From positions 4,358,011 through 4,422,010 of the forward strand of contig OZ220750.1 in NCBI GenBank assembly GCA_965117055.1: a DNA stretch of 64,000 bases, read 5' to 3'. How positions within the stretch are numbered: position 1 is the first letter of the stretch; the number at the start of each line of letters is the position of its first letter. Positions 41,847 through 58,882 of this stretch are shown piece after piece. The stretch is from Alphaproteobacteria bacterium (GTDB taxonomy: Bacteria; Pseudomonadota; Alphaproteobacteria; MPNO01). The notes below the pieces were generated by a model. That model made no database searches, was not told the origin of the DNA, and was given only the letters and a program-made list of their open reading frames with translations. The translations under genes and the position numbers were made by a program.

Positions 41847-41953
41847 GTCGTGTTCCTTCCCGGAAACCGCCCGCCCGTCTTAGCCGAGCCCGCGGCAGGA
41901 CGCCAGCAGGAATGGACGGCCTTCCCGACCCGTCATGGTCCTCGCAGGCCGCT

Positions 41954-42083
41954 CCCCCTCACCCCGACCCTCTCCCCCGCGGGGAGAGGGGGCGTCGCTG
42001 CATCGCCTCGGCCTTATCTTCTCCCCTCCCGCTTGCCCCGGATCGCAGTCCGGGGCTTGCGGGAGGGGCCGGGGGAGGGTGGG
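41954..42083. repeat. Composite REP, families 4 and 5
   Basis: CCCCTCACCCCGACCCTCTCCCCCGCGGGGAGAGGGGG plus CTTCTCCCCTCCCGCTTGC...GCGGGAGGGGCCGGGGGAGGGTG; same pair recurs 7 or more times in the window. Confidence 0.85.
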
Positions 42084-42188
42084 GCATCGATTCGCGCCTT
42101 CCGCGCGTCCGGCCTCGACTCCCGAATGTCCCTATCGCATAAATCCCGAACGCCTGCTTTCCCTTTTCGGGCAAAGCGGAGCCGCCCC

Positions 42189-42812
42189 TCAGGCGGTCTC
42201 CTCGGGCACCGGCGGGCGGGCGTCGAGCACCGGGGCGGCCCAGGCGAGCGCGATGTCCTCCATCTCGCGGGCGTTGGTCGAGTAGAGGTTGAAGGTCCCC
42301 TTCTCGCGGCCCGGCTTGACCCGCTTGACGTAGCGCGGCCCGTCGTCGGCGAGCTGCACGATGCACAGCTTGCCGATGCACTCGGACGGCACGCCTTCGT
42401 AGTCGCGGGTGTAGAACAGCAGCCACCCCTCCTCGATGGGCAGCATCGAATCGCCCTCGACCTCGACCGCCACCGTCTGCTGCGCGTCGAGCCCGTTGGG
42501 GCAGCGAACCATGCGGAGTCCCTGGCCCATCGCGTGGTCGTCGATGGCGTTGACCTCGGCCCCGGCGCCGACCCTGCCGACGACGGCCACGTTGGCCAGC
42601 CCCTCGACCAGGTCGAGCACGTTGCAGTCGAGCGCGGTCGCCACGTCGGTCAGCCGGTCGAGCGTGATCGAGACCTTGCCGGTCTCCCATTTGTGAAGGT
42701 GCCCGGCCGAGGTGCCGAGCATCCCGGCGAGCACCTGGAGGGTCAGCCCGCGGCGCTTGCGCCACTGCCTGATCCGGTTGGAGATCGCGGTTCCGTCGGG
42801 TCGGAGCGCCAT
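42189..42812 (-). CDS. CI/LexA-like phage repressor (XRE HTH plus S24 peptidase)
   Basis: 207 aa; IRQWRKRRGLTLQVLAGMLGTSAGHLHKWETG HTH; VEGDSMLP serine motif and downstream KRV lysine region. Confidence 0.85.
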   Translation of the reverse strand: MALRPDGTAISNRIRQWRKRRGLTLQVLAGMLGTSAGHLHKWETGKVSITLDRLTDVATALDCNVLDLVEGLANVAVVGRVGAGAEVNAIDDHAMGQGLRMVRCPNGLDAQQTVAVEVEGDSMLPIEEGWLLFYTRDYEGVPSECIGKLCIVQLADDGPRYVKRVKPGREKGTFNLYSTNAREMEDIALAWAAPVLDARPPVPEETA

Positions 42813-42830
42813 GTCTTTCGTCTCCCGGTT

Positions 42831-42885
42831 GAAAAATTATGCCGATTGTCGCTTGACATAATTTTTCCTATGAAGAAAAATGGGT
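42831..42885. promoter_or_regulatory. Immunity-region operator and divergent promoter
   Basis: Perfect 11-bp inverted repeat GAAAAATTATG (42831-42841) / CATAATTTTTC (42857-42867) overlapping TTGACA (42853-42858); third half-site GAAAAAT at 42875. Confidence 0.5.
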
Positions 42886-42914
42886 AGATCAGATATGAGC
42901 AGGAGATAACCCAT

Positions 42915-43340
42915 ATGCAGAAAAATCGCAAGCGGCTTTCGGGCCCCGAGGCGGAACGGCTCCAAAGGCTGTCGGCAAGCGGGGTCGAGCTCCGCCACCT
43001 CGAATGGACGTTCGGCATTCCCGCCGACGGCCTGGAAGCCCTGCTGGACGAGTTGCGGCGCGGTTACCGCAACGCGCCGCCGGCGCCCGAGCCCGACGAA
43101 GCGGCGGAGCCGGAGGGCGCCGGCCCGCCGCTCCCCTCGCCGCCGCTCGAACGCGCCCTCGAAGCGCTCGGCGACCGGGTGACCGCGACGCTGGCGGGCT
43201 ACGCGCTCGACGGCGCGCCGGCCTCGATCCCGGACCTGATCCGGGCCGCCCGCGCGGAAGGCGTCCGCATCCCCTATCCCGGGATCGATCCGCTGCCCCG
43301 GACCTGGGCGGCCGGACCGAGCGCCCGGCACGCCGCCTGA
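42915..43340 (+). CDS. Hypothetical early phage protein (Cro-position)
   Basis: 141-aa ORF divergent from the repressor; SD-like GAGCAGGAGA; no motif recognised. Confidence 0.4.
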   Translation: MQKNRKRLSGPEAERLQRLSASGVELRHLEWTFGIPADGLEALLDELRRGYRNAPPAPEPDEAAEPEGAGPPLPSPPLERALEALGDRVTATLAGYALDGAPASIPDLIRAARAEGVRIPYPGIDPLPRTWAAGPSARHAA

Positions 43341-43365
43341 AACCATCGCCTGGAAAGGAGAGACC

Positions 43366-44001
43366 ATGGCAAGCGAAGCACGACCCGAAGCCCCGGATCG
43401 CGGTCCGGGGCAAGCCCCCATTGCCGACGAGAACATCGGCCCCACCCCCGAGACCGCCGCCAGGCTGCGGCGCGACCTCGTCGCCCGGCTGGCGCAAGAG
43501 GGCCGGCTCGGCCGCGAGCAGGTCCGCGCGGCGCTCGAGGTGCGCCGCGTCTGGGAGGCGTTCGGGCGCGGCCTGTTCCCCGGCGCGCGCGCGATCGCGC
43601 CGGTCGGCCAGCGCACGAGGCGCGCCATGTTCGTCGACCCGATCGACCGCCTCACGGTCGAGGAGGAGCGCGCCTGGCGGCTCCGCTACCGGCCCTGGGC
43701 GCGCGAGATGGCGGTCACCGTCGCGGCCGGCGCGATCCGCACCACCCGGCTCCAGCTGATCCTCGACGTGGTGGTCGACAATCACGGGCTGCGCGAGGTC
43801 GAGGGCTGGTACCGCATGCGCCACGGCGGCGCCATCGAGCACATCCGCGCCGCGCTCCACCGCTACGCCGAGATCGCCGGCTGGGTCGATGAACCGTACC
43901 CCGAGACGCGGAAATCGGCGGCGATCCGCGTCAACCAGGACAACCGGATGGGGCAAGAAACGCCCGGAGATCCGGACGAAGACGAAAAAGATTACCTGTG
44001 A
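43366..44001 (+). CDS. Hypothetical phage protein (candidate late regulator by position)
   Basis: 211-aa ORF with GGAGAG SD; last gene before the promoter-terminator cassettes and terminase genes. Confidence 0.5.
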   Translation: MASEARPEAPDRGPGQAPIADENIGPTPETAARLRRDLVARLAQEGRLGREQVRAALEVRRVWEAFGRGLFPGARAIAPVGQRTRRAMFVDPIDRLTVEEERAWRLRYRPWAREMAVTVAAGAIRTTRLQLILDVVVDNHGLREVEGWYRMRHGGAIEHIRAALHRYAEIAGWVDEPYPETRKSAAIRVNQDNRMGQETPGDPDEDEKDYL

Positions 44002-44010
44002 AGAAATTTG

Positions 44011-44090
44011 TTGCTTGACCCGGGACGCGATCGACCCCATATTTCCTATACTACGCGAAGTGGGGGCGCCGGAGACCGGCGCCCCTTTTT
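44011..44090 (+). promoter_or_regulatory. Promoter-plus-terminator cassette A
   Basis: CTTGACC-N17-CATATT (44015-44043), then perfect 10-bp GC hairpin GGGGCGCCGG-aga-CCGGCGCCCC plus T5 (44063-44090). Confidence 0.5.
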
Positions 44091-44100
44091 CGTCCCAAGC

Positions 44101-44205
44101 CCTCCCCCGGCCCCTCCCGCAAGCGGGAGGGGAGAAGGTAGAGAAGAGCCGGCGCCGCGAGTCTCCCTCTCCCCCAGCGGGGGAGAGGGCCGGGGTGAGG
44201 GGCGG
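44101..44205. repeat. Composite REP, families 5 and 4 (inverted orientation)
   Basis: CCTCCCCCGGCCCCTCCCGCAAGCGGGAGGGGAGAAG ... CTCTCCCCCAGCGGGGGAGAGGGCCGGGGTGAGGGG. Confidence 0.85.
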
Positions 44206-44330
44206 GCCGAAATAGCGCATGGAACGGATTCGGGGGTCCAGAGGCGGATTTTGGGGTGGAATCGGAAGGGAGAAAAAGGACCTTGATTTCAAGGGTTTAG
44301 AGACCAAATTATCCTTAACAAGCATTTTTT

Positions 44331-44416
44331 CTTGACTCGGGACGCGTTTTGGGGTAAATTCCCTACACTACGCGAAATGGGGGAGAGGGGCGCCGGAGGG
44401 TTCGGCGCCCCTTTCT
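44331..44416 (+). promoter_or_regulatory. Promoter-plus-terminator cassette B
   Basis: CTTGACT-N17-TAAATT (44331-44360), then hairpin GGGGCGCCG-gagggtt-CGGCGCCCC plus TTTCT (44387-44416). Confidence 0.5.
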
Positions 44417-44458
44417 CGTCCCGGGCGGTGTGGGGGTTCTCCGGCACCTTACCCCTTT

Positions 44459-44573
44459 GTCGTCATGGCCGGACTTGTTCCGGCCATCCACGTCTTGCAG
44501 CACCTCGGTGCGGGCCGGGAGCGGGCGAGGCGGCGGAGGGACGTGGATGCCCGGAACAAGTCCGGGCATGACG
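44459..44573. repeat. REPIN doublet, family 1
   Basis: GTCGTCATGGCCGGACTTGTTCCGGCCATCCACGTC ... GACGTGGATGCCCGGAACAAGTCCGGGCATGACGG; homologous to 5493-5606. Confidence 0.85.
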
Positions 44574-44630
44574 GGGAGGGGATTCGGGCCGGAACGATTC
44601 CGGCCTGCTCGGTTCACGACGACCCGATCC

Positions 44631-44733
44631 ACCCTCCCCCGGCCCCTCCCGCGAGCGGGAGGGGAGGAGTGGAGAGGAGTCGGCGCCACAACTCTCCCTC
44701 TCCCCGGCGGGGAGAGGGCCGGGGTGAGGGGCG
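44631..44733. repeat. Composite REP, families 5 and 4
   Basis: Same architecture as 44101-44205. Confidence 0.85.
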
Positions 44734-44860
44734 GGCCGGAATCGCACATGAGACGGATTCGGGGGTTCCGGGGCCGATTTCGGCCAGGAATCGGAAGGGA
44801 GAAAAAAGGCCGTTATTTCGGGGGGTTAGCGATTAATTTACTCTGAACACGTATTTTTTG

Positions 44861-44947
44861 CTTGACTCGGGACGCGTTTTGGGGTAAATTCCCTACACTA
44901 CGCGAAATGGGGGAGAGGGGCGCCGGAGGGTTCGGCGCCCTTTTTCG
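44861..44947 (+). promoter_or_regulatory. Promoter-plus-terminator cassette C (48 nt upstream of terS)
   Basis: Near-identical to cassette B over about 100 bp: CTTGACT-N17-TAAATT (44861-44890), hairpin 44917-44940 plus TTTTT. Confidence 0.5.
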
Positions 44948-44994
44948 TTGCCGGGCCGGACGCCCGGCCATCCGCAAGAGAAAGGGACAGGATC

Positions 44995-45405
44995 GTGCCA
45001 GGCCCATCGAAGGCCGAGGCGGCCATGCGCGCGGTCGCACGGAGAGACATCGCGCGGCGCATCGGACCGCCGCCCGGGCGCCCGCCGCCGATCGACGAGC
45101 AGAATGTCGCCGGGATCGCCGCGTTCGGCTGCACCCGCAAGGAGGCGGCGGCGTGGTTCGGGGTGCCGGCGGCCGAGTTCAGGGAGCGGCTCAAGGAACC
45201 CGCGCTCAAGGACGCCTGGGCGCAAGGCAGGGCGCGCGGGCGGGTGCTGATCCGCCAGACCCAGTTCCGGCTGGCCGAGAACAGCCCGCCGATGGCGCAG
45301 CATCTCGGCCGCACGATGCTGGGCCAGGACACGCCCGCCAGGGCGCCCGCGCGGAAGAAACCCGCGCGGATCGTCATCGACACGGGGATCGACCGTGGCG
45401 AGTAG
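44995..45405 (+). CDS. Terminase small subunit (HTH-type)
   Basis: 136 aa, GTG start; IAAFGCTRKEAAAWFGVPAAEF HTH; overlaps the terL start; position. Confidence 0.6.
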   Translation: MPGPSKAEAAMRAVARRDIARRIGPPPGRPPPIDEQNVAGIAAFGCTRKEAAAWFGVPAAEFRERLKEPALKDAWAQGRARGRVLIRQTQFRLAENSPPMAQHLGRTMLGQDTPARAPARKKPARIVIDTGIDRGE

Positions 45406-46714
45406 GGTCAGCACCGGCTACCGGCCGCGCCCGCTCCAGGCCGGCATCCACCGCCGCCTCAAGCGCTTCAGCGTGCTGGTCTGCCACCGCCGCTTCGGCA
45501 AGACGGTGCTCTGCGTCAACGAGCTCGTCGACCACGCGGTGCGCGCGACCCGCGGGAGCCCGCGCTACGCCTATATCGCGCCGCTCTACCGCCAGGCCAA
45601 GCAGGTCGCGTGGGACTACCTCAAGCACTACACGAAGGCGATCCCGGACCGGCGGGTGCACGAGACCGAGCTCCGCGTCGACCTCCCCAACGGGGCGCGC
45701 ATCCAGCTCTACGGCGCCGACAACCCGGATTCGCTGCGCGGCATCTATCTCGACGGGGTGGTGCTCGACGAGTACGCGCAGATGAGCCCGCATCTCTGGG
45801 GCGAGGTGATCCGCCCGGCGCTCGCCGACCGCGAGGGCTGGGCGGTCTTCATCGGCACGCCCAAGGGGCACAACGAATTCTGGCGCAAATACCGCGCGGC
45901 GTGCGCCGACCCCGACTGGTACGCGGCGCTGTTCCCGGCCTCCGAGACCCGCATCCTGCCGGAGCCTGAGCTCGAGGCCGCGCGCCGCGACATGACGCCG
46001 GAGCAGTACGCGCAGGAGTTCGAGTGCTCCTTCGAGGCGGCGATCCGGGGCGCCTATTACGGCAAGGCGATGGCGGAAGCCCAGCGTACCGGGCGCATCC
46101 GCGCGGTGCCGCACGACCCGGCGCTGCCGGTCGACACCGCCTGGGACCTCGGGGTGGGCGATCCGACGGCGATCTGGTTCGTCCAGCTCGCCGGGCCCGA
46201 GATCCACCTGCTCGACTACTACGAGGCGGCGGGCGAGGGGCTCGACCACTATGCGCGGATACTCCAGGCCAAGGCGGCCGAGCGCGGCTGGGTCTATGGC
46301 AGCCACTACGCGCCGCACGACGCGCTGGCGCGCGAGCTCGGCACCGGGCGGACGCGCGAGGAGCAGGCGCGCCGCCTCGGGGTCGCGCTCACCGTGGTGC
46401 CGCGCCACGGGATCGAGGACGGCATCAACGCGGCGCGCGCGATCCTGCCGCGCTGCTGGTTCGACGCGGCGCGCACCGAGCCCGGCATCGAATGCCTGCG
46501 CCAGTACCGCGCCAAGGTCGACGGCGCGACGGGCACGATCGGCGATGCGCCGGTGCACGACCAGTTCAGCCACGGGGCGGACGCCTTCCGCTACCTCGCG
46601 ATGGGCGTGCGCGACCGCTTCGCCCCGCCCCCGCCGCGCGGCGGGGACACGATCGACGACCATCTGCGCCGCCATTTCGCGGCCAGGCGCAGCGCCCGCG
46701 ACGGGCTGATCTGA
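45395..46714 (+). CDS. Terminase large subunit
   Basis: 439 aa; Walker A-like CHRRFGKTV, Walker B VVLDEY, nuclease half with DLGVGDPTAIW and HGADAFRY. Confidence 0.9.
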   Translation: MASRVSTGYRPRPLQAGIHRRLKRFSVLVCHRRFGKTVLCVNELVDHAVRATRGSPRYAYIAPLYRQAKQVAWDYLKHYTKAIPDRRVHETELRVDLPNGARIQLYGADNPDSLRGIYLDGVVLDEYAQMSPHLWGEVIRPALADREGWAVFIGTPKGHNEFWRKYRAACADPDWYAALFPASETRILPEPELEAARRDMTPEQYAQEFECSFEAAIRGAYYGKAMAEAQRTGRIRAVPHDPALPVDTAWDLGVGDPTAIWFVQLAGPEIHLLDYYEAAGEGLDHYARILQAKAAERGWVYGSHYAPHDALARELGTGRTREEQARRLGVALTVVPRHGIEDGINAARAILPRCWFDAARTEPGIECLRQYRAKVDGATGTIGDAPVHDQFSHGADAFRYLAMGVRDRFAPPPPRGGDTIDDHLRRHFAARRSARDGLI

Positions 46715-46726
46715 GGGCGGCGAGCG

Positions 46727-46828
46727 GCCCCCTCACCCCGGCCCTCTCCCCGCCGGGGAGAGGGAGAGTTGCGGGGCCGACTTCCCCTCTCTTCTCCCCT
46801 CCCTCTGGGAGGGGTCGGGGGAGGGTGC
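46727..46828. repeat. Composite REP, families 4 and 5
   Basis: CCCCCTCACCCCGGCCCTCTCCCCGCCGGGGAGAGGGAGAG ... CTTCTCCCCTCCCTCTGGGAGGGGTCGGGGGAGGGTG. Confidence 0.85.
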
Positions 46829-46860
46829 CGGCCACGACGACGAACGAACAGGAGAACCGG

Positions 46861-48591
46861 ATGAAAACCGACACCGACAGCGCCGGACCCGACGAAACCG
46901 TCCGCTACTGGCGCGGCGAGCTGGAGCGGGCGGAGCGCGCCGAGCGCGACTGGATGCGGCGCGCGGAGAAGACCGTCGAGCGCTACCGCGCCGAGAAGCG
47001 CGTCGACGGCCAGCGCCGCTTCAACATCCTCTGGGCCAATACCGAGCTCCTCAAGCCCGCGGTCTATTCGCGGACGCCCGCGCCCGACGTGCGGCGGCGC
47101 TGGCTCGACGACGACCCGGCGGGGCGCGAGGCGGCCTCGGCGCTCGAACGCGCGCTCTCCTATCTCATCGACGACGGCGGGTTCGACGCGGCGATGGAGG
47201 CGGTGCGCGACGACATGCTGCTGCCCGGCCGCGGCGTGGCCCGGATCGTCTACGAGCCGGTCATCGCGCGGCGGCCGCTCGCGCGGGCGGGCGAGGTCTT
47301 CCTGCTCGACGGGCGGCCGGCGGAGCCCGACGGGTTCGACGGCGAGACCCCGTATGTCGAGGAGATCGTCGACGAGCGCGTCTTCTGCCGGCACGTGTTC
47401 TGGAAGGACTACCGCGAGCAGCCGGCGCGGTGCTGGGACGAGGTCGGCTGGATCGCCTTCCGCCACTCGCTGACCCGGGCCGAGCTGGTCGAGCGGTTCG
47501 GCGCGGCGGGAAGGCGGATCCCGCTCGAAGGCACCGTGAGCGCCTACGATGGACGCGGCGGGGAAGGCGCCGCGCCCGAGGACGCGAGGCGCGCCGTGGT
47601 CTGGGAGATCTGGGACAAGGCGAAGCGCCGCCGCGTGGTGATCGCGGACGGCTTCGACCGCGCGGTGGAGGAGACCGGCGACCCGCTCGGCCTCGCCGGC
47701 TTCTTCCCCATCCCGGAGCCGCTCTACGCCGTGAAGACCTCGGATTCGCGCATTCCCATCCCCGAGTTCACCCTCTACCAGGACCAGGCGCTGGAGCTCG
47801 ACGAGCTCACCACCCGCAAGCGGCATTTGATCGCGGCGCTCAAGGCGCGCGGCGTCTATGCCGGGGTGCTGGGCGAGATCGAGCGGCTGCTGACCGAGGC
47901 CGGCGAGAACGAGATGATCCCGGTCAAGGACTGGGACCGGTTCCGCGACAAGGGCGGGCTCGCCGCCGCCATCGAGTGGCTGCCGATCGAGCGCATCGCC
48001 CAGGTGATCGTCTCGCTGAACGGCCACATCGCCCAGCTCAAGGGCGAGATCTTCGAGATCACCGGGCTGTCGGACATCCTGCGCGGCTCGACCCGGGCGA
48101 GCGAGACCGCCACCGCGCAGCGGCTCAAGGGCTCGTTCGGCGCGCTCCGGATGCAGCCCCGCCAGCGCCCGATGGAGCGCTTCGTGCGCGACGTGCTCCG
48201 CCTCAAGGCGGAGGTGATCGCCGAGCATTTCCGCCCCGAGACGCTGGCCCGGATGACCGGCAGGCCGGTGCCGCCGGCGGTTCTCGCGCTGCTCCGCGAC
48301 GAGCGGCTGCGCGGCTTCCGGATCGACGTCGAGACCGAATCGACGGTCCAGCCCGACGCCGAGGCCGAGCGCCGCAACGCGGTCGAGTTCCTCGCCGCCT
48401 CGACGCAGTTCTTCACCGGGATCGCGCCGCTGATCGCCGCCGCGCCGCAATCGGCGCCGATGTTCCTCGAGATGTTCCGCACCGCCGCGCGCAGCTTCAA
48501 GCCGGGACGGCGGCTGGAGGAGGTCATCGCCCGGACGAGCGAGGCGCTGATCCGCGAGGCCGAGGCGGAAAGCGGCGGGAGGACGCCATGA
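46861..48591 (+). CDS. Portal protein (podovirus head-to-tail connector type)
   Basis: 576 aa; FNILWANTELLKPAVYSRTPAPDVRRR N-terminal block; position after terL. Confidence 0.8.
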   Translation: MKTDTDSAGPDETVRYWRGELERAERAERDWMRRAEKTVERYRAEKRVDGQRRFNILWANTELLKPAVYSRTPAPDVRRRWLDDDPAGREAASALERALSYLIDDGGFDAAMEAVRDDMLLPGRGVARIVYEPVIARRPLARAGEVFLLDGRPAEPDGFDGETPYVEEIVDERVFCRHVFWKDYREQPARCWDEVGWIAFRHSLTRAELVERFGAAGRRIPLEGTVSAYDGRGGEGAAPEDARRAVVWEIWDKAKRRRVVIADGFDRAVEETGDPLGLAGFFPIPEPLYAVKTSDSRIPIPEFTLYQDQALELDELTTRKRHLIAALKARGVYAGVLGEIERLLTEAGENEMIPVKDWDRFRDKGGLAAAIEWLPIERIAQVIVSLNGHIAQLKGEIFEITGLSDILRGSTRASETATAQRLKGSFGALRMQPRQRPMERFVRDVLRLKAEVIAEHFRPETLARMTGRPVPPAVLALLRDERLRGFRIDVETESTVQPDAEAERRNAVEFLAASTQFFTGIAPLIAAAPQSAPMFLEMFRTAARSFKPGRRLEEVIARTSEALIREAEAESGGRTP

Positions 48592-48812
48592 CGCGCTACG
48601 TCTGGAGCCGGGAAGAGGGCCGCTGGGTGCCCGCGGGGACCGCGCCGCCACGCCTGCAGATCGTCAACCGCGACGCGCCGTTCGCCGAGGGCGTGAGGAG
48701 CATGGCCGACGGCAAACGCTACACCGCCCGCCGCGCCTGGGACGAGCACTTGCGCGCGCACGGCATGGTCGAGATCGGCAACGACGCGGTGGAGCGACCC
48801 CCCTCACCCTGA
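48588..48812 (+). CDS. Small hypothetical phage protein
   Basis: 74 aa; ATGA coupling to portal; last codons run into a REP element. Confidence 0.4.
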   Translation: MTRYVWSREEGRWVPAGTAPPRLQIVNRDAPFAEGVRSMADGKRYTARRAWDEHLRAHGMVEIGNDAVERPPSP

Positions 48813-48900
48813 CCCTCTCCCCCGCTGGGGGAGAGGGGATTCGCCTGCCCATCCCGCCTCTTCTTCTCCCCTCCCGCTTGCGGGAGGGGCCGGGGGAGGG
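48798..48900. repeat. Composite REP, families 4 and 5
   Basis: CCCCCCTCACCCTGACCCTCTCCCCCGCTGGGGGAGAGGGG ... CTTCTCCCCTCCCGCTTGCGGGAGGGGCCGGGGGAGGG. Confidence 0.85.
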
Positions 48901-48922
48901 CGGACCGAACGGAGACAAAGAC

Positions 48923-49336
48923 ATGCCCATCCTCGAAACCCTGTTCGGCAGCCGCGCGGCGCAGCCCATCGAGGCGGTCGGGCGCGTCATCGACGACCTG
49001 TTCACCTCGGACGAGGAACGGCTCGGCAAGGAGGCGCTGCTGACCCGCCTCGCCCAGCGGCCGGCGCTCGCCCAGATCGAGGTCAACCGGATCGAGGCGC
49101 AGCATCGCTCGGTCTTCGTCGCCGGCTGGCGCCCGTTCATCGGCTGGATCTGCGGCGCCGCGCTCGCCTGGAACTTCATCCTGCGCGACGCCCTGGTCTG
49201 GGCCTTCGCGGTATGGGCGCCGGGCACCCCGGTGCCGGCGGCCTTCCAGCTCGAACACCTGCTGACGGTGCTCCTCAGCCTCCTCGGCCTCGGCGGCCTG
49301 CGCACCTTCGAGAAGTTCGGGGGGCGGACGAAGTGA
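48923..49336 (+). CDS. 3TM holin-like protein (GTA-release holin family, DUF3154-like)
   Basis: 137 aa; QIEVNRIEAQHRSVFVAGWRPFIGWICGAALAWNF followed by further TM segments. Confidence 0.6.
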   Translation: MPILETLFGSRAAQPIEAVGRVIDDLFTSDEERLGKEALLTRLAQRPALAQIEVNRIEAQHRSVFVAGWRPFIGWICGAALAWNFILRDALVWAFAVWAPGTPVPAAFQLEHLLTVLLSLLGLGGLRTFEKFGGRTK

Positions 49337-49404
49337 CTGTCGCTCCTTGACCTGTCCCACCAACCGTTTACGGTTGCGCCGTCGAACCTTGCAGGGAGGC
49401 CGCC

Positions 49405-49728
49405 ATGACGGGAGATGCGCGGCGACCGAACGCTTTGCGCTTCGTGATCTTCGAGGAAGAGGGTGCATGGGTCGCGATGTGCCTGGAACGCTACATCGGT
49501 ACGCAGGGCCGCACGAAGGAAGAGGCCATCGACGGCCTGAAGATCGTCTACCGTGCCGAGCTCGACGAGTCCGTGGCCCGCACCGGCGAGCCGTTCGGCG
49601 GCATTCGGCGAGCACCGAAGAAATTCTGGGAGATGCACGAGTCGGACGATCCGTCGATCCTTCGCGGCCGCATATGCGACGACGGGGTCGGCGCGGGAAT
49701 GGGAGAGCGGCTTGAAATCGCGGCGTAG
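49405..49728 (+). CDS. HicB-fold-like small protein
   Basis: 107 aa; ALRFVIFEEEGAWVAMCLERYIGTQGRTKEEAIDGLKIVYRAEL fits the HicB N-domain pattern; weak. Confidence 0.4.
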   Translation: MTGDARRPNALRFVIFEEEGAWVAMCLERYIGTQGRTKEEAIDGLKIVYRAELDESVARTGEPFGGIRRAPKKFWEMHESDDPSILRGRICDDGVGAGMGERLEIAA

Positions 49729-49730
49729 GC

Positions 49731-50015
49731 ATGATCGCGGAACGCACTCCCCCGGGCCCTGCCTTTGACGACTACTGCAAATGGCTTACGGAAGAGGGCG
49801 GCAGCGTCCGGCACCGACAGAACCGATGGGGCGGCTACGCTGTGCTGCACTCGCCGGATGGCACCCTTTGCGTCGTGATCCCGAAGACGGCCATGAACGA
49901 GATGCTGGTCTCGGAGTTGATCGAGTATCTCGATACCCGGCTCGGACTGGTCTCGCCGTGGCGGAGGCATCCACCGATGCCCCAGGGGGATGCCGATGAC
50001 GACCCCGAAGCCTGA
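49731..50015 (+). CDS. Hypothetical small protein (possible HicA-like partner)
   Basis: 94-aa ORF starting 3 nt after the previous stop; pattern W...GG....H.......GGYAVLHSPDGTLCVVIPK only loosely HicA-like. Confidence 0.35.
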   Translation: MIAERTPPGPAFDDYCKWLTEEGGSVRHRQNRWGGYAVLHSPDGTLCVVIPKTAMNEMLVSELIEYLDTRLGLVSPWRRHPPMPQGDADDDPEA

Positions 50016-50084
50016 CAAGGACCGCTTCATCGAGATGACGCGGGATCTGGACCGCGACGAAGATCCGGCAAACCGGAGGGACCC

Positions 50085-50363
50085 ATGAAATACGTATTGC
50101 TCGGCAAGCAGAGCGGCGAGTGGCTCGGCAGGCACGACCGGCGCAACCGGCTCGCCCGCGCCAAGGCCAAGGAGCTCGGGATCAAGATCCAGTCGGTGCT
50201 CTACACCCAGGGCGAATACGACTTCGTCGACACGGTCGAGGCGCCCTCGCCCGAGGCGATGCTCAAGTTCTCGGTGTGGTACGCCAAGCAGGGCTTCGGC
50301 TCCTTCCAGAGCATGCCCGCCTTCGACGGCAAGACCATGGCCGAGGCGTCGAAGGAGGAGTAG
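50085..50363 (+). CDS. GYD-domain protein
   Basis: 92 aa; MKYVLLGK...YTQGEYDFVDTVEAPSPEAMLKFSVWYAKQG matches the GYD family. Confidence 0.7.
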   Translation: MKYVLLGKQSGEWLGRHDRRNRLARAKAKELGIKIQSVLYTQGEYDFVDTVEAPSPEAMLKFSVWYAKQGFGSFQSMPAFDGKTMAEASKEE

Positions 50364-50376
50364 CGGGGCGCCCCAA

Positions 50377-50512
50377 CTGTCACCCCGGACTTGATCCGGG
50401 GTCCAGGCCCCGGACTGGGATCCGGGGCAGGCCTGCCCCGGACCGCGATCCGGGGAAGCCCGGCGAGGCGGAGCGTGTGGCTCTGGACCCCGGCTCAAGG
50501 CCGGGGTGACAA
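50377..50512. repeat. REP cluster, family 3 (four CCCCGGA-N5-TCCGGGG hairpins)
   Basis: Outer arms TGTCACCCCGGACTTGATCCGGGGTCCAG (50378-50406) and CTGGACCCCGGCTCAAGGCCGGGGTGACA (50483-50511). Confidence 0.9.
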
Positions 50513-50532
50513 TCGAGGCGGTTCGGAAGGCC

Positions 50533-50823
50533 ATGCGGACCTACTGGGTCTACATCCTCGCGAGCGGGCGCAACGGCACGCTCTATGTGGGCGTGACCAA
50601 CGACATCGTCCGGCGGGTCGCGCAGCATCGGGACGGCACGGGTGCGTCCTTCACCCGCAAATACAAGGTGACACGGCTCGTGCACGTGCAGCCGTTCGAG
50701 GATATCGAGTACGCCATCGCGCAGGAGAAGCGGCTGAAGAATTGGCGGCGGGAATGGAAGCTCACGTTGATCGAACGGGAGAATCCGGAGTGGCGGGACT
50801 TGTACGAAGACATCACCGCCTGA
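50533..50823 (+). CDS. Small GIY-YIG nuclease-family protein (copy 1)
   Basis: YWVYILASGRNGTLYVGVTNDIVRRVAQHR ... EKRLKNWRREWK; the ORF can also start at GTG 50506, inside the REP arm. Confidence 0.8.
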   Translation: MRTYWVYILASGRNGTLYVGVTNDIVRRVAQHRDGTGASFTRKYKVTRLVHVQPFEDIEYAIAQEKRLKNWRREWKLTLIERENPEWRDLYEDITA

Positions 50824-50847
50824 TGCCGCCCCCCTGACCGCACAGAC

Positions 50848-50934
50848 TGTCACCCCGGACTTGATCCGGGGTCCAGGGAAACAGGCAAGAACGATGCCCG
50901 CCGCTCTGGACCCCGGATCAAGTCCGGGGTGACA
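50848..50934. repeat. REPIN doublet, family 3
   Basis: 29-mer 50848-50876 and its exact reverse complement 50906-50934. Confidence 0.9.
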
Positions 50935-50979
50935 TCGGGGGTGCAGGAGGTTGCGGCACCCCTTTGGAGGCTGAACGAG

Positions 50980-51435
50980 ATGACCGAGGTCGCGAAACGG
51001 CGCATGCGGTACGGGTACACCGAGTGCGGCCTGGATAACGTATTTATCGAGGGGATCGAGATGCGCGGCGATGAGGTGCTGTACATCCCGGCGGTCAACG
51101 AACTGCACAAGACGATCGCCCGGGGCATCGTCGAGAGCGGAACGGGCATCAGCGGGCAGGAGCTCAGGTTCCTGCGGACGATGATGGCGTTCACCCAAGC
51201 GGAGCTGGCAAGGCACGTCCACCACGACGCCCAGTCGATCGCGCGATGGGAAAAAAACCAGACGCCGATCCAGCCGGCATCCGAGATCGTCATCCGCCTG
51301 CTGGCCGTCGAGAAACTGAACCTCGGCGAGCGCGGTCCGATCGAGAAAATCGCCGCCAGATGCGTGCCGGCCGAAACCCGCGCGGACATCGTGATCGACG
51401 GAAGCGGCCCCCCGAGATACAGGCTCGCGGCCTGA
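50980..51435 (+). CDS. MqsA/YgiT-like XRE HTH regulator (orphan antitoxin-like)
   Basis: YGYTECGLDNVFIEG...ISGQELRFLRTMMAFTQAELARHVHHDAQSIARWEKN; no zinc-finger cysteines; no adjacent toxin. Confidence 0.6.
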   Translation: MTEVAKRRMRYGYTECGLDNVFIEGIEMRGDEVLYIPAVNELHKTIARGIVESGTGISGQELRFLRTMMAFTQAELARHVHHDAQSIARWEKNQTPIQPASEIVIRLLAVEKLNLGERGPIEKIAARCVPAETRADIVIDGSGPPRYRLAA

Positions 51436-51464
51436 TTTCGGGGCCATAATCGTCGAACTCTCCC

Positions 51465-51489
51465 ACGGCCCATCGGGGCCGTTTTTTTC
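51465..51489 (+). terminator. Intrinsic terminator
   Basis: ACGGCCC-atcg-GGGCCGT followed by TTTTTTC. Confidence 0.55.
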
Positions 51490-51534
51490 TGCCGCGTAAC
51501 GGGCAGAGTCACACACCAACCCCCCGGAGGAAAC

Positions 51535-52524
51535 ATGACGGACGACACCAACGGGGCGGCTTCGGCCGCCGCGCGGAACAGCCTGCGCGAAGACCTGGAA
51601 GAGGCGTGGGACCGGCTTTCCTCGGAAGCCGGAGAACCGGAACCGGAGGCGAAGGCCGCTTCCGTCGAGGACGAGGACGAAACGGCCGTCCCGGAGGACG
51701 ACGCCGCGCCGGAGGACGAGCCCGAAACCGCCGTCGTCCCCCTCGCCCACTGGCCGGCGGAGTGGCGCGAGCGGTTCCAGGCGCTGCCGGAAGACGCCAA
51801 GCCCTACGCGCTCGACCTCCACCGGCAATTCGAGAAGGCGCATTCCGACCGCAGCCAGGCGCTCGCCGAGCGCGAGAAGGAGCTCGACGGGCTCCGGGCG
51901 GTCGACGCGGCGCTCGCCCCGTGGCGCGAGACCATGCGGGCCGAGGGGCTGACCGACGGCGAGGCGGTGAAGCGGCTGATGGACGCGCGGGCGGCGCTCG
52001 AACGCGACCCCGGGGCCGCGCTGTCGGCGATCGCCGAGTCCTACGGCATCGCGCCGCCGGCCGGCGCCGCCGCCGCCCCGCCCGAGCGGCGGGACGCGCT
52101 GACGGAGACGCTCGAGCGCTACGCCGCCGAGCAGCACGAGCTCCGCCTGATCGCCGCGATGGAGGCCGAGCTCGATTCCCGCGCCCGCGCGGTCGACGCG
52201 GCGGGCGAGAAGCGATTTCCCCATTTCGAGGCGGTCCGGCCGAAGCTCGCCGCGCTGATGCGCGCCGGCGCGGCGGACGGCTTCGAAGACGCCTACGAAC
52301 AGGCCGTCTGGGCCGATCCCGCTCTCCGGCAGAAGGCGCTGGAAGCGCGCGATGCCGAGCTGGCGGCACGGCGCGAAAGCGCCCGCAAGGCCGAGGTGGA
52401 GAAGGCGAGGAACGCCGGACGGGCCGCGCTCAGCGGCTCCGAACCGGCGAAATCCGCGCTGCCGCCCGCCCGGTCGCATCGCGAGGAGCTTGAGCGCGTG
52501 TGGGACCGGATGGTCGGCGCGTAA
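51535..52524 (+). CDS. Scaffolding protein (by position and composition)
   Basis: 329 aa, acidic, Ala/Glu-rich, helical; immediately upstream of the capsid gene. Confidence 0.55.
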   Translation: MTDDTNGAASAAARNSLREDLEEAWDRLSSEAGEPEPEAKAASVEDEDETAVPEDDAAPEDEPETAVVPLAHWPAEWRERFQALPEDAKPYALDLHRQFEKAHSDRSQALAEREKELDGLRAVDAALAPWRETMRAEGLTDGEAVKRLMDARAALERDPGAALSAIAESYGIAPPAGAAAAPPERRDALTETLERYAAEQHELRLIAAMEAELDSRARAVDAAGEKRFPHFEAVRPKLAALMRAGAADGFEDAYEQAVWADPALRQKALEARDAELAARRESARKAEVEKARNAGRAALSGSEPAKSALPPARSHREELERVWDRMVGA

Positions 52525-52549
52525 CAACCCCAACGAAAGGAAACGACAC

Positions 52550-53515
52550 ATGGCGAACGCCAATCTGGGCGATCTGGTCACGACCACGCTGCGCAACCGG
52601 CGCGGCCAGCTCGCCGACAACATCCTCAACCACAACGCGGTGCTCCGCTTCCTCAACCGGACGGGCAACGTGGACCCGGCGGACGGCGGGCGGACCCTGG
52701 TGGAAGAGCTCGAATACGCCGAGAACCAGACCTTCAAGTACTATTCCGGCTACGAGGCGCTCGACGTCTCGCCGTCCGACGTCTTCGACTCCGCCGAGTT
52801 CGAGTGGAAGCAGGCCGCCGTGGTGGTCTCGGTCTCGGGCGCCGAGGAGCGCAAGAACGCCGGCAAGGAGCAGTCGCTCCGCCTCGTCGACCGGCGCATC
52901 AAGAACGCCGAGAAGACGATGATGAACAACCTGTCGGAGGGCGTCTATTCCGACGGCACCGGCTCGTCGGGCAAGCAGATCGGCGGGCTCAAGGCGCTGG
53001 TCGCGGACGACCCCACGACCGGAACCGTCGGCGGCATCGACCGCGCCTCGTTCGAGTTCTGGCGCAACCAGGTCTACGACTTCTCGGAAGCCTCCGTCGA
53101 GGCGGGTTCGGAGACGATCCAGAAGGCGATGAACGCGCTCTGGCTCAAATGCCTCAGGGGCGCCGACGCGCCGACCCTGATCGTCGCCGACACCGCGTAT
53201 TTCAACCACTACTGGCAGTCGCTGCAGGCGATCCAGCGGATCTCGTCGGAGGAGGACGCGGGCGCCGGCTTCCGCTCGATCCGGTTCTACGGGCCGGGCG
53301 GCTCGGCCCCGGTGATGTACGACGACAAGTGCCCGGAAGAGCACATGTACATGCTGAACACCGACTACCTGTTCTGGCGCCCGCACAAGGACGCCAACAT
53401 GGAGCCGCTGGAGAAGCGGCAATCGGTCAACCAGGACGCGACCGTGATCCCGGTCGTCTTCATGGGCAACCTCACCATGTCCAACGCCGCCCGCCAGGGC
53501 GTGATGCACGCGTAG
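52550..53515 (+). CDS. Major capsid protein
   Basis: 321 aa from MANANLGDLVTTTLRNRRGQLADNI; AAGGAAA SD; position after scaffold; podovirus coat-like blocks. Confidence 0.8.
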   Translation: MANANLGDLVTTTLRNRRGQLADNILNHNAVLRFLNRTGNVDPADGGRTLVEELEYAENQTFKYYSGYEALDVSPSDVFDSAEFEWKQAAVVVSVSGAEERKNAGKEQSLRLVDRRIKNAEKTMMNNLSEGVYSDGTGSSGKQIGGLKALVADDPTTGTVGGIDRASFEFWRNQVYDFSEASVEAGSETIQKAMNALWLKCLRGADAPTLIVADTAYFNHYWQSLQAIQRISSEEDAGAGFRSIRFYGPGGSAPVMYDDKCPEEHMYMLNTDYLFWRPHKDANMEPLEKRQSVNQDATVIPVVFMGNLTMSNAARQGVMHA

Positions 53516-53519
53516 CGGC

Positions 53520-54100
53520 ACGGGGCGGCGGTCCTCCGACCGCCGCCCGCCTCCCCCCGTCATGCTCGGCGAAGGCCGAGCATCCACGAGTTTTTTCCTT
53601 GGCGGAGGGAGAACAAAAAAACAAATCGTGGATGCTCGGCCTTCGCCGAGCATGACGGGGGGGGGGAGAGGGAGACCCACCTTTCCCCCCCCCCCTCCCG
53701 CTTGCGGGAGGGACCGGGGGAGGGCGGCGATCGTGTCGACAGGGCGGCGGTCGGAGAACCACCGCCCGCCCTCTCCTCCGTCATGCTCGGCGGAGGCCGA
53801 CCATCCACGAGTTTTTTCTTCGGCGGAGGGAGAACAAAAAAACAAATCGTGGATGCTCGGCCTTCGCCGAGCATGACGATAGGGGGGAGAGGGAGACCCA
53901 CCTTCCCCCCTCCCGCTTGCGGGAGGGGCCGGGGGAGGGCGGCGATCCTGTCGACAGGGCGGCGGTCGGAGAACCACCGCCCGCCCTCTCCTCCGTCATG
54001 CTCGGCGGAGGCCGACCATCCACGAGTTTTTTCTTCGGCTGCGGAACAACAAAAAAGCAAATCGTGGATGCTCGGCCTTCGCCGAGCATGACGATGGGGG
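53520..54100. repeat. Tandem array (about 2.5 units of 215-220 bp) of composite REPs (family 2 variant REPIN plus family 5 plus GC hairpin)
   Basis: Unit starts CCGTCATGCTCGG at 53558, 53778 and 53993; arms GTCATGCTCGGCGAAGGCCGAGCATCCACGAG / reverse complement. Confidence 0.9.
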
Positions 54101-54103
54101 TGA

Positions 54104-54394
54104 TCAGGGCAGGAAGGTCTCGACAAGGTCGTTCCAGTCCGGGTTGGACTCGTGGATCAACCGGACCTTCCAGGCCCGCCGCCACCGCTTGATCGCCTTC
54201 TCCCGCCGGATCGCTTCGCGGATGTCGTCGTGAGGTTCGGCGTAAACGAGGCGTGTCAGCCCGTAACGCTTGGTGAAGCCGTCGATCAGGCCTTCGCGGT
54301 GCTCGTGAACGCGGCGCGCGAGGTCGGCGGTCACGCCGACATAGAGGGTGCCGTCGGGCCGGTTCGTCACGATGTAGACCCAGCCGCCCGCCAT
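54104..54394 (-). CDS. Small GIY-YIG nuclease-family protein (copy 2)
   Basis: GGWVYIVTNRPDGTLYVGVTADLARRVHEHR ... EKAIKRWRRAWK; the ORF can extend to an ATG inside the upstream REP arm. Confidence 0.8.
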   Translation of the reverse strand: MAGGWVYIVTNRPDGTLYVGVTADLARRVHEHREGLIDGFTKRYGLTRLVYAEPHDDIREAIRREKAIKRWRRAWKVRLIHESNPDWNDLVETFLP

Positions 54395-54440
54395 CCGTCG
54401 ATGCTGGCGGCGAGAGCGACAGGACGCAACCTCCTCCCCC

Positions 54441-54478
54441 GTCATGCTCGGCGAAGGCCGAGCATCCACGAGTTTTTT
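54441..54478. repeat. REP half-unit, family 2 variant
   Basis: CGTCATGCTCGGCGAAGGCCGAGCATCCACGAG, 46 nt upstream of GIY-YIG copy 2. Confidence 0.85.
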
Positions 54479-54540
54479 TCTTTGGCGGGGGGCCGGATTG
54501 TCGGCCCCTCTTTCCACAACACCAACCGAAAGGACGATCC

Positions 54541-55104
54541 ATGGAACCGGTTCCGGACGATGTCGGCTACTGGGAGAATTTCGCGGCCGGGCAGCAGGGC
54601 GGCGGGCGGGACGACTGCATCCCGCATTTCTACATGCGCGCGGTGCGCAACGCGGCGCGGAGCGAGGCGGAAGGGCGGCCGGTGTTCGACGAGGCCCCCT
54701 ACGTCAAGGTGCTGGTGCCGGGCGACCGCAACAGCATCGTCGACCGCAGGGTGGGCGATTCCGACCGCGAGCGCTGGCCCGGGCAATGGGCCGCCTTCCT
54801 CGCCAGGCGCGAGCGCCCGGCCGGCACGCCGATCGGGCACTGGCCCTATCTCACCGTCGCCCGCGCCGCCGAGCTCAAGGCGCTGGAGCTGCTGACCGTC
54901 GAGCAGGTGGCCGGGGCCGACGACGCGCTGGTCGAACGCATCGGCGGGGACGCCGCCGCGCTGGTCGAGCGCGCCCGGCAGTTCCTCCAGCCGCAATCCG
55001 AGACCGAGACCGAGCTCAGGGAGCAGATCGCCGCGCTCAAGCGCGACGTCGACGTGTGGAGGGGGCTCGCCGAGTCGAACAACCCGCCGGAGGACGCGGA
55101 ATGA
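54541..55104 (+). CDS. Hypothetical phage structural-module protein
   Basis: 187-aa ORF; codon usage like neighbours; ATGA coupling to next gene. Confidence 0.5.
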   Translation: MEPVPDDVGYWENFAAGQQGGGRDDCIPHFYMRAVRNAARSEAEGRPVFDEAPYVKVLVPGDRNSIVDRRVGDSDRERWPGQWAAFLARRERPAGTPIGHWPYLTVARAAELKALELLTVEQVAGADDALVERIGGDAAALVERARQFLQPQSETETELREQIAALKRDVDVWRGLAESNNPPEDAE

Positions 55105-55805: not shown

Positions 55806-55807
55806 CG

Positions 55808-58389: not shown

Positions 58390-58395
58390 CGCGGT

Positions 58396-58504: not shown

Positions 58505-58541
58505 ACCCCCAGAACCACCGACCCAACCCCAGGAGAACGCC

Positions 58542-58838: not shown

Positions 58839-58882
58839 CCCGCTCGCCCTCCCCCACACCCAACCAACACAAGGAGACCACA

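Follow-up and report, generated by a model that had tools for sequence, protein, structure and literature searches.

For the Q protein of phage lambda, an arrangement combining a constitutive-type promoter, a spacer element, a NANNNT sequence past the −10 hexamer, and a terminator is well established, and the lambda pause hexamer occupies positions +1 to +6. Repetitive extragenic palindromes (REP), bacterial interspersed mosaic elements (BIME), and Correia-type repeats are GC-rich intergenic palindromes that occur in many copies and sometimes have promoter or terminator activity. The subject of this work is a cassette consisting of a promoter-like element closely followed by a GC-rich hairpin, three copies of which precede the terminase genes of a podovirus-like element in the chromosome of an alphaproteobacterium. 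The analysed stretch of 64,000 nt (GenBank assembly GCA_965117055.1, contig OZ220750.1, positions 4,358,011 to 4,422,010) is referred to as the window, and coordinates without a label refer to it.

Antiterminators that load at promoters have also been described in gene transfer agents (GTA). In the Bartonella agent (BaGTA), the P(bgtA-K) promoter has the near-consensus structure TTGACA-N17-TATCAT; a NANNNT sequence just past the −10 hexamer, 5 bp from it in BaGTA, is the pause element needed by Q and BrrG, and BrrG is a promoter-bound processive antiterminator that bypasses the leader terminator (bioRxiv 10.1101/2024.11.20.624540). In the Caulobacter agent (CcGTA), the GafZ-binding element lies between the −35 and −10 hexamers, GafZ travels with RNA polymerase past terminators, the terminator consisting of three GC-rich direct repeats, and GafY and GafZ are two halves of the Rhodobacter protein GafA (PMC11150451). 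Putative mobile promoters, in turn, are defined as highly similar promoter regions located before non-homologous genes (Nijveen, Matus-Garcia, van Passel; PMC3575422).

We tentatively favour, without giving it an even chance, the reading that the cassette is a propagated, antitermination-gated promoter module of a domesticated podovirus-like element, served by antitermination encoded in that element; we infer initiation, termination, pausing, and antitermination alike from the sequence. The module comprises an AT-rich UP-like tract, CTTGAC-N17-(T/C)A(T/G/A)ATT with GGGACGCG right after the −35 hexamer, a NANNNT hexamer 3 nt past the −10 hexamer, and a 9–11 bp GC hairpin with a U-run that begins about 10 nt past the predicted transcription start, taken 7 nt past the first −10. 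The three copies in the window were identified by a repeat finder, alignment, promoter scan, and folding:

44006-44096, forward strand: cassette A, a short type II member, with −35 TTGACC (44015-44020), GGGACGCG (44022-44029), −10 CATATT (44038-44043), second hexamer TATACT (44047-44052), hairpin (44062-44086), and T-run (44086-44090).
44323-44422, forward strand: cassette B, a long type I member, with −35 TTGACT (44332-44337), GGGACGCG (44339-44346), −10 TAAATT (44355-44360), second hexamer TACACT (44364-44369), extended hairpin (44381-44417) with a GC core (44387-44411), and weak T-run (44412-44416).
44853-44952, forward strand: cassette C, a long type I member, with −35 TTGACT (44862-44867), GGGACGCG (44869-44876), −10 TAAATT (44885-44890), second hexamer TACACT (44894-44899), hairpin (44912-44946), and T-run (44941-44945).

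The repeat finder returned three-copy families corresponding to the −35 part (44006/44323/44853), the leader (44041/44358/44888), and the 3′ arm with the T-run (44077/44403/44933). Cassettes B and C are 93% identical over 102 nt, and the mean column identity in the alignment of all three is 82%. A promoter consensus scan of 4 kb found four promoter-like sites against 0.3 ± 0.6 in shuffled sequences, and three of the four are the cassettes, with TTGACC-17-CATATT (44015-44043), TTGACT-17-TAAATT (44332-44360), and TTGACT-17-TAAATT (44862-44890), all on the forward strand. The three homologous cassettes of a preliminary description of this locus, the near-identity of two of them over about 100 bp, and their CTTGAC(T/C)-N17 promoter-like elements were thus all confirmed. 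The hexamers of B and C, TTGACT and TAAATT, are the same as those of lambda PR′. The 22-nt leader core occurs three times in the window against none expected, and the hairpin pattern GGCGCCG-N3-11-CGGCGCC three times in the 64 kb, only in the cassettes, against 0.38 expected.

The predicted folding energies of the hairpins in A, B, and C are −32.1, −33.3, and −28.0 kcal/mol, with z-scores of −4.8, −3.9, and −3.6, respectively. The strong GC hairpin of the preliminary description therefore stands (−28 to −33 kcal/mol), whereas the T-run does so only in part, since a strict terminator scan scores A alone and the T-run of B (TTTCT) is weak. Likewise, a hairpin placed 25–30 nt downstream is correct for the GC core of B and C, which begins 27 nt past the −10, but not for A, where the distance is 19 nt; the later core in B and C is due to a 7-nt insertion, which lengthens the stem. 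All three cassettes have a second −10-like hexamer (TATACT or TACACT) 3 nt past the first. The onset of cassette A is 13 nt past the stop codon of ORF211, a candidate regulator gene, and cassette C ends, as had been noted, 48 nt before the GTG codon (44995) of terS, the putative small terminase gene. By these features, each cassette combines a plausible sigma-70 promoter with a plausible intrinsic terminator that begins no more than about 10 nt past the predicted start. The distance from start to hairpin leaves no space for a riboswitch or a competing fold, and regulated read-through would therefore depend on a factor either loading at the promoter or binding to the hairpin. A search of the whole window against Rfam at gathering thresholds returned only a tRNA, with no match to the cassettes, and at E values up to 10 every match in 43900-45050 was far under threshold, the best being generic hairpin matches. 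Inspection by eye revealed no LexA box (GAAC-N7-GAAC) or CtrA box in the cassette.

Contigs of species-representative genomes were searched for dispersed copies with the promoter part only (CTTGACNNGGGACGCGNTNNNNNNNANATT, 19 fixed bases), for which we estimated about 4 matches by chance. The scan returned 89 stretches, three of which (L011, L089, and L090; L-numbers denote the related loci or stretches compared, and P-numbers the proteins compared) are evident chance matches in other phyla. About 110 copies were found in 11 alphaproteobacterial metagenome-assembled genomes (MAGs) of the Defluviicoccus clade, from 3 to about 30 per genome and spread over the chromosomes, with at least about 27 in the genome RHO2_bin_2 and about 20 in CBDBCV. 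Nearly all dispersed copies include the full cassette with its hairpin, and two subfamilies are distinguishable, a long type I (from about −165 to about +95, about 260 nt), to which B and C belong, and a short type II, to which A belongs. The downstream genes are diverse and include terS, Amidase_2 + PG_binding, PDC-S11-like, aldehyde dehydrogenase, SelA, Rieske oxygenase, rhodanese, UbiD, hydantoinase, and other genes; RHO2_bin_2 has copies before terS and the genes of aldehyde dehydrogenase, SelA, Rieske oxygenase, and rhodanese, with orthologous copies in CBDBCV. In most cases, the cassette and the downstream gene share their orientation, the gene starting 77–160 nt further on; the orientation counts are approximate since the GC3-based gene caller is crude and over-extends starts. 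Judged by this distribution, the cassette belongs to a dispersed repeat family and is not a device specific to the late operon.

The hairpin is rarely found alone: in 870 kb of DNA from related genomes, the promoter precedes 81 hairpins, and about 5 are true orphans, several apparent orphans being degenerate cassettes, and an interpretation of the hairpin as an independent REP was rejected on these counts. The preliminary description had also considered that the cassette might prove to be just another genome-wide REP family unrelated to phage late genes; the copies before unrelated genes in 11 genomes, some of them directed at the 3′ end of a gene, largely agree with this, but the coupling of promoter and hairpin and the orientation bias do not.

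The dispersed copies provided 106 non-identical natural variants of the cassette. Positions 2 and 6 of the second hexamer (A34 and T38), which lie outside the search-pattern positions, are invariant in all 106, and positions 33, 35, 36, and 37 of this region vary; such A2/T6 invariance is what a functional −10-type element would be expected to show. Beginning at position 47 (about +10), a hairpin of −10 kcal/mol or stronger is predicted in 103 of the 106 copies. Pairing is 100% over the seven loop-nearest pairs (89 copies), compensatory stem changes occur in L065, L072, and L083, the A-rich 5′ flank changes in concert with the U-run, and the loops vary in sequence and in length (3–9 nt), as do the bases at 5′-tail positions 39, 41, 42, and 45.

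These variants bear on two other interpretations. One is that the element acts at the DNA level, the palindrome and its flanks being a pac or recombination site, or a REP mobilised by a RAYT-type transposase, with incidental promoter-like hexamers. Since pac or cos sites commonly lie just upstream of terS, the position of the cassettes would suit such a role, as would dispersed copies serving a particle that packages host DNA, and the GC palindrome resembles REP hairpins. However, hairpins without the promoter almost never occur, and the A2/T6 invariance, the two hexamers at sigma-70 spacing, the CTTGAC −35 sequence, and the AT-rich upstream tract are promoter features. Moreover, compensatory stem changes together with free loop and stem sequence fit RNA or hairpin structure, not sequence-specific DNA recognition, the orientation is biased relative to genes, and no RAYT gene was seen beside any copy, albeit with no systematic search. 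We therefore consider a DNA-level function highly improbable.

The other interpretation, that the cassettes are multi-copy small RNA genes, had been offered in the preliminary description as three copies of a noncoding RNA gene. The RNA of about 40–50 nt, a short 5′ tail plus the GC hairpin, would then itself be functional, for example, as a protein decoy or an antisense regulator. A promoter and a terminator of its own, inherited as a unit, are the anatomy of a small RNA gene, copies in tail-to-tail intergenic regions fit a free-standing gene, and the hairpin is conserved with compensatory changes. It is precisely the parts that would bear specificity, the 5′ tail and the loop, that vary, however, and the promoter is far better conserved than the transcript. 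In addition, about ten copies devoid of the hairpin are plainly mRNA promoters, the cassette in tandem gene arrays is always co-directional with the downstream gene (on crude gene calls), and no Rfam family was found at threshold. The variable 5′ tail and loop and the lack of an Rfam match make this the weaker reading, and we regard it as improbable.

The genes on either side of the cassettes, relevant to how the proposed gate could be operated, are as follows:

42189-42812, reverse strand: CI/LexA-like repressor (Pfam HTH_3, 2.2e-10, and Peptidase_S24, 2.4e-07; phrog_4 transcriptional repressor, 4.8e-20).
42853-42881, forward strand: promoter-like site, putatively of the ORF141-ORF211 operon, TTGACA-17-AAAAAT, with 10 of 12 consensus matches.
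42915-43340, forward strand: ORF141, small regulator-like protein with a predicted N-terminal three-helix helix-turn-helix (HTH).
43366-44001, forward strand: ORF211, candidate late regulator with cassette A directly downstream.
44995-45405, forward strand: putative small terminase terS, the first gene past cassette C, named by its position before terL, with no family match.
45395-46714, forward strand: large terminase terL (Pfam Terminase_6N, 2.1e-08; phrog_2, 1.7e-40).

The cassettes thus mark the boundary between a regulatory block (S24 repressor, ORF141, and ORF211) and a packaging, head, and lysis block, and ORF211, by analogy with lambda, occupies the position of Q. The repressor gene is divergent from ORF141 and ORF211, and the same gene is found in the same place in L001-L005 and L096-L099; the site at 42853, the fourth of the promoter-like sites in the 4 kb, is a divergent early promoter-like site facing ORF141. 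ORF141 has 32 homologues, all within the same clade, and no Pfam or NCBIfam match; for its AlphaFold2 model (mean predicted local distance difference test, pLDDT, 70), Foldseek revealed no PDB match below E 0.6 and only weak HTH-type matches (best E 0.68). ORF211 has 69 homologues, the named ones all from Defluviicoccus MAGs, and belongs to no Pfam, PHROG, or NCBIfam family. Foldseek matches of its model (pLDDT 74) to KorA, FocB, and sigma-28 were weak and non-significant (best E 1.6), and a sequence profile search of PDB with the ORF211 family gave only noise. In proteins P0038 and P0045, ORF141-like and ORF211-like sequences are fused into a single protein of 298–325 aa. One fused gene (L006:6001-6978) adjoins a repressor-like HTH gene for which no Peptidase_S24 match was recorded, with no terminase or cassette nearby, which indicates that the regulator pair can persist without the structural genes.

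The association of ORF211, cassettes, and terS is maintained in related genomes. Synteny from the amidase gene to the portal gene is conserved in L001-L005, with ORF211 identities from 85% down to 71%, and the flank with the amidase and repressor genes is kept in L096 and L099, where the ORF211 homologues are 56% and 59% identical. One cassette is located 7–13 nt past the ORF211 stop codon in all of L001-L005, L027, L041, L063, L069, L085, and L055/L071, and terS starts 106–134 nt past the CTTGAC of a cassette in the same loci. The syntenic loci hold 2–5 cassettes each, the gap between ORF211 and terS ranges from 487 to 4600 nt, and the cassettes next to terS have strong U-runs of 5–6 T. The ORF211 proteins of L002, L003, and L004 are identical, and two of these three loci contain 1.3–1.8 kb of low-GC cargo between cassettes. 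In L002, 68 nt spanning the junction of the ORF211 3′ end with the cassette are duplicated alongside the cargo, indicating that recombination between copies captures genes, as with morons. For the cargo open reading frames (ORFs) that lie between the cassettes of L004 and L005, PADLOC yielded no matches; Pfam gave a weak retropepsin-like match to one cargo ORF. At a much greater distance, L098 contains an ORF211 homologue (47% identity) beside a different terminase and portal (Sf6-type terS and Mu-type portal). From its stop codon onwards, CTTGAC, a CACACT hexamer, a GC hairpin, and TTTCGTTTTCG follow, the spacer sequence being different, with GCCAGACG at the position of GGGACGCG. The architecture therefore predates the sequence family and is linked to the ORF211-type gene.

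Under the antitermination-gated reading, one could hypothesise that host RNA polymerase initiates at every cassette and, unaided, releases an RNA of about 40–50 nt at the hairpin. Upon inactivation of the repressor, ORF211, probably with ORF141, would bind the spacer element and engage the polymerase held at the NANNNT hexamer, giving rise to a terminator-resistant complex, by the same logic as Q, BrrG, and GafZ. The modified polymerase would then traverse the remaining hairpins and REPs and transcribe terS and the late genes, the divergent S24 repressor supplying the induction route. Recombination between copies would have trapped cargo genes between the cassettes of related strains, and the module would have been copied to other chromosomal sites, making the family a propagated promoter and possibly a dispersed regulon.

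A number of observations weigh against this scheme. No resemblance in sequence or fold to Q of lambda, Q21, Q82, or any solved antiterminator could be detected for ORF141 or ORF211, and no Q protein is among the structural matches listed. The metabolic targets, namely, the genes of aldehyde dehydrogenase, SelA, Rieske oxygenase, rhodanese, and UbiD, are unlikely members of the regulon of a lysis-inducing element. In about ten cases, the cassette is directed at the stop codon of a genuine convergent gene (MBL hydrolase, RidA, P450, acyl-CoA synthetase; these cases were verified by translation as recognisable enzymes), where a gated promoter has no obvious use. The second hexamer would lie at about −3 to +3 relative to the predicted start, nearer to it than in lambda, and GGGACGCG belonged to the search pattern, so its invariance is not independent evidence; relaxed searches turned up the variants GGGACGTG, GGGACGGG, and GGGACACG of this element. 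The U-run is weak (TTTCCGTT) in many dispersed copies, and about ten copies have no hairpin and lead straight to a ribosome-binding site. In orthologous copies from two genomes, the promoter is 86–92% and the upstream part 77–81% identical, against 94–96% for the adjacent genes. Finally, in the source organism or a near-identical one (a 9-kb contig encoding an identical amidase protein), the Amidase_2 + PG_binding orthologue P0107, not linked to the element, is preceded by a cassette that has decayed at exactly the motifs presumed functional (GGGATATG, CATATA, and a weakened stem). A separate idea, that purifying selection acts on the entire unit and makes the cassette more conserved than its flanks, was rejected, the cassette being less conserved than adjacent genes.

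Several of these observations would be expected if the cassette were a mobile promoter without a dedicated antiterminator, a possibility that we find doubtful, though it deserves serious attention. In that case, a strong constitutive promoter would be spreading within an intergenic repeat, by recombination or some form of transposition, and would merely have been duplicated at terS, with late control located elsewhere; the hairpin would serve as a leaky attenuator, a stabiliser of the mRNA 5′ end, and an insulator against upstream read-through. A homologous promoter before non-homologous genes within one genome, as in RHO2_bin_2 and CBDBCV, is what the definition of mobile promoters demands (PMC3575422). 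The type I unit, at about 260 nt, extends far beyond the needs of a promoter and lies among other REPs, the hairpin within about 10 nt of the predicted 5′ end suits a 5′ stabiliser, and the junction duplicate in L002 points to recombination between copies. The weak U-runs, the promoter-only copies that drive genes directly, the faster evolution of orthologous copies relative to their neighbours, and the decay of the source-species copy all agree. On the other hand, a mobile promoter leaves unexplained why about 85% of copies retain both the promoter and the terminator-like hairpin, why positions 2 and 6 of the second hexamer are invariant, and why the same architecture recurs with another sequence at the distant ORF211 homologue in L098. 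The strong U-runs of the copies adjacent to terS also argue against it, and no terminal inverted repeats, target duplications, or transposase were recognised, by eye and with no systematic search for target duplications, the ends showing only a weak resemblance to each other. The gated and mobile readings are not exclusive, since the family may have begun as a late control site and then spread.

A bolder version of the gated reading, which we consider unlikely, is that a phage-derived antitermination switch became portable: the late cassette would have been copied around the chromosome, wiring an unlinked cell-wall amidase, several PDC-S11-like defence candidates, and, in some species, dozens of metabolic genes to ORF141/ORF211, which would constitute a new Q/GafZ-like family of promoter-loading antiterminators. 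If this were true, it would be the first dispersed regulon built by propagating a qut-like site. More generally, if the gating is real, it illustrates how a domesticated phage regulator can gain a host regulon through the copying of its site, and it points to a new antiterminator family; if it is not, the family is still a clean natural case of a promoter that has propagated together with an insulator of its own. In addition, the 106 variants approximate a mutational scan of a sigma-70 promoter in an organism with 70% GC.

Two groups of genes downstream of dispersed copies deserve mention. The commonest cassette-driven gene, present in 2–3 copies per genome about 115–120 nt past the cassette (L018, L020, L023, L024, L030, L033, L046, L054, L058, L075, L082, L084, and L095), encodes a protein of about 250 aa that ends in an XRE HTH and whose N-terminal domain is matched by PADLOC to PDC-S11, a candidate defence family (3.5e-61); the protein may act in defence or, alternatively, bind the cassette DNA as its partner. 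The Amidase_2 + PG_binding gene, at a conserved host locus beside the gene of a 795-aa molybdopterin oxidoreductase, has a cassette upstream in several genomes, of which the source species retains only the decayed copy (L029, L052, L073, L081, and L100:3560-3700). Its family is widespread in Proteobacteria and annotated as AmpD-like, and the protein may be a host enzyme rather than an endolysin.

Regarding the number of cassettes in the window, B and C were found to be the right-hand ends of a tandem unit of about 325 nt, composed of a REP, an upstream part of about 115 nt, and the cassette, and repeated with a period of 530 nt (44100-44426 and 44632-44956, 77–95% identical; repeat families D1, D2, D5, and D6). 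The remaining parts of this region are the following:

44100-44215, no strand: REP-type GC-rich repeat, copy 1, opening tandem unit 1 (direct repeats D5 and D6; inverted repeats I4, I5, and I6).
44211-44322, forward strand: type I upstream part of cassette B, kept in dispersed copies from about −165 to −1.
44461-44573, no strand: palindromic repeat between the tandem units (inverted repeat I1, 34-nt arms, 94% complementary).
44632-44745, no strand: REP-type repeat, copy 2, opening tandem unit 2 (D5 and D6, 77–95% identical to copy 1).
44740-44852, forward strand: type I upstream part of cassette C (D1, 44692-44859 being 79% identical to 44163-44330; family alignment).

In view of the 530-nt tandem duplication and of recombination between copies, the three cassettes are presumably not a designed triple lock. 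The triplication with REP insertions given in the preliminary description is accurate with respect to the REPs between the copies, but the triplication itself is a by-product of the duplication, and related loci have 2–5 copies.

The upstream part of B contains GATTC/GAATC repeats, an A-run, and a small hairpin (44281-44294), followed by the AT-rich UP-like tract. On the reverse strand, this hairpin forms a terminator-like site (44294-44281) with a conserved ATTTC loop, a co-varying stem, and the forward-strand A-run before it, about 40–50 nt upstream of the −35 hexamer and in the same place in type I copies elsewhere; with it, the long element would halt outgoing transcription in both directions. 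Inspection by eye showed no reverse-strand promoter that could turn the upstream part of type I into a small gene. The CcrM methylation motif GANTC is enriched 6–8 times in type I elements (3–4 per 222 nt versus 2.2–2.4 per kb), occurring at 44227, 44259, and 44334 in the B element and at 44739, 44756, 44788, and 44864 in the C element, and one site overlaps the −35 hexamer (TTGACTC); this enrichment hints at a methylation or cell-cycle input. The REP type of 44100-44215 was also found, through ORF translations, at about 41912-42142 and 46700-46860, and the motif of the palindrome, GTCATGCCCGGACTTGTTCCGGGCATCCACG, also flanks cassettes in other genomes. Apart from the cassettes, the intergenic DNA here thus contains at least two REP-type families, one of the CCCTCCCC..GGGAGGGG / CTCTCCCC..GGGGAGAG type (41912-42142, 44100-44215, 44632-44745, and 46700-46860) and the other represented by the GTCATGCCCGGACTTGTTCCGGGCATCCACG palindrome (44461-44573), and both create long spurious ORFs on the two strands.

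The podovirus-like element spans 42150-61350, from the repressor to the virion genes, with REPs inside it between terL and the portal gene (about 46700-46860). On its left flank, the order is the host amidase gene, a REP, the divergent HTH + S24 repressor, ORF141, and ORF211. To the right of terL lie genes for a portal (phrog_12082), a holin (phrog_3427), and a podovirus-type major capsid protein (NF033394 capsid_maj_Podo, 8.6e-92), and further right a phrog_5107 amidase and other virion proteins, up to about 61.3 kb. No integrase was found on either side of the element, which occupies the same chromosomal site in several related species; it is possibly a chromosomally fixed, domesticated podovirus-like element, and looks domesticated or GTA-like. 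No ORF211 relative, leader motif, or promoter pattern was detected among IMG/VR viral contigs, so that the cassette module is not seen in catalogued free or predicted viruses. A GIY-YIG nuclease gene (54104-54517) lies on the reverse strand, opposite to the structural cluster that surrounds it, and another is present between two cassettes of L069. The right end (60443-62036) abuts genes for a DUF7662 protein, a PIN-domain toxin, and an SOS-response-associated peptidase (SRAP), and a DDE transposase fragment is located at 63236-63670. Elsewhere in the window, the low GC content of 29000-31000 (52–57% versus about 70%) suggests a separate foreign insert.

Among the known systems, the arrangement of lambda Q and PR′-tR′, to which the cassettes had been likened in the preliminary description, is matched in architecture and position, and perhaps in the spacer element and the NANNNT hexamer, but not in the regulator, which is not Q-like, nor in specificity for late genes. 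As in lambda, a sigma-70 promoter lies directly past the regulator gene and before the packaging and lysis genes, which holds at the sequence level in L001-L005, and a predicted intrinsic terminator would limit the transcript to a short RNA unless overridden. The element between −35 and −10 (GGGACGCG, in the search pattern) is a candidate binding site for a Q-type factor, and the NANNNT −10-like hexamer just past the −10 may be a pause element. As in lambdoid phages, cargo genes are found between the promoter and the late genes in related strains. Unlike in lambda, no Q-family protein is detectable, the terminator is about 10 nt and not about 190 nt from the start, each locus holds 2–5 copies where lambda has one, further copies lie elsewhere on the host chromosome with no single phage-specific site, and the second hexamer overlaps the predicted start. 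The lambda analogy is thus apt at the level of architecture, with no known antiterminator detected.

BaGTA is likewise an alphaproteobacterial domesticated phage element having a near-consensus promoter with a 17-nt spacer, NANNNT past the −10, and a leader terminator. However, BrrG is structurally Q21-like and ORF141/ORF211 are not, and BaGTA has one promoter with an 864-bp leader instead of a compact repeated cassette. CcGTA, with RogA, GafY, and GafZ, offers an analogy of arrangement only: two adjacent small regulators, fused elsewhere, under a dedicated repressor. It also shares an element between −35 and −10 and a chromosomally fixed location with accessory loci elsewhere. In contrast to CcGTA and its Rhodobacter counterpart (RcGTA), the structural genes here are podovirus-type (capsid_maj_Podo, phrog_12082 portal, and Terminase_6N) and not RcGTA-type, and only the holin matches a GTA-named family (Pfam GTA_holin_3TM in orthologous loci, phrog_3427 in the window); furthermore, the Caulobacter repeats are 150-bp terminators without promoters, and GafZ has a single target.

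With putative mobile promoters, the cassette shares the presence of similar promoter-bearing intergenic sequences before non-homologous genes within and between related genomes, but it brings along a −10-like hexamer and a terminator close to the promoter, and among the places it occupies is the late-operon control region of a phage-derived element. REP, BIME, and Correia repeats are also intergenic GC-rich palindromes, and the cassettes are interleaved with true REP families; they differ in that the hairpin is not an independent repeat, the copies number tens and not hundreds, and no terminal inverted repeats are recognised. Promoter-loaded antitermination, as represented by lambda Q, BrrG, and GafZ, is known as a one-promoter, one-operon device, whereas here the putative control site is a compact 90-nt unit, made up of promoter, candidate loading element, −10-like hexamer, and terminator, that is duplicated at the late operon and, within a wastewater clade of Alphaproteobacteria, has spread to tens of genes unrelated to it. 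What appears to be new is the occurrence of the known promoter-plus-terminator gating layout as a compact, dispersed, and duplicated module.

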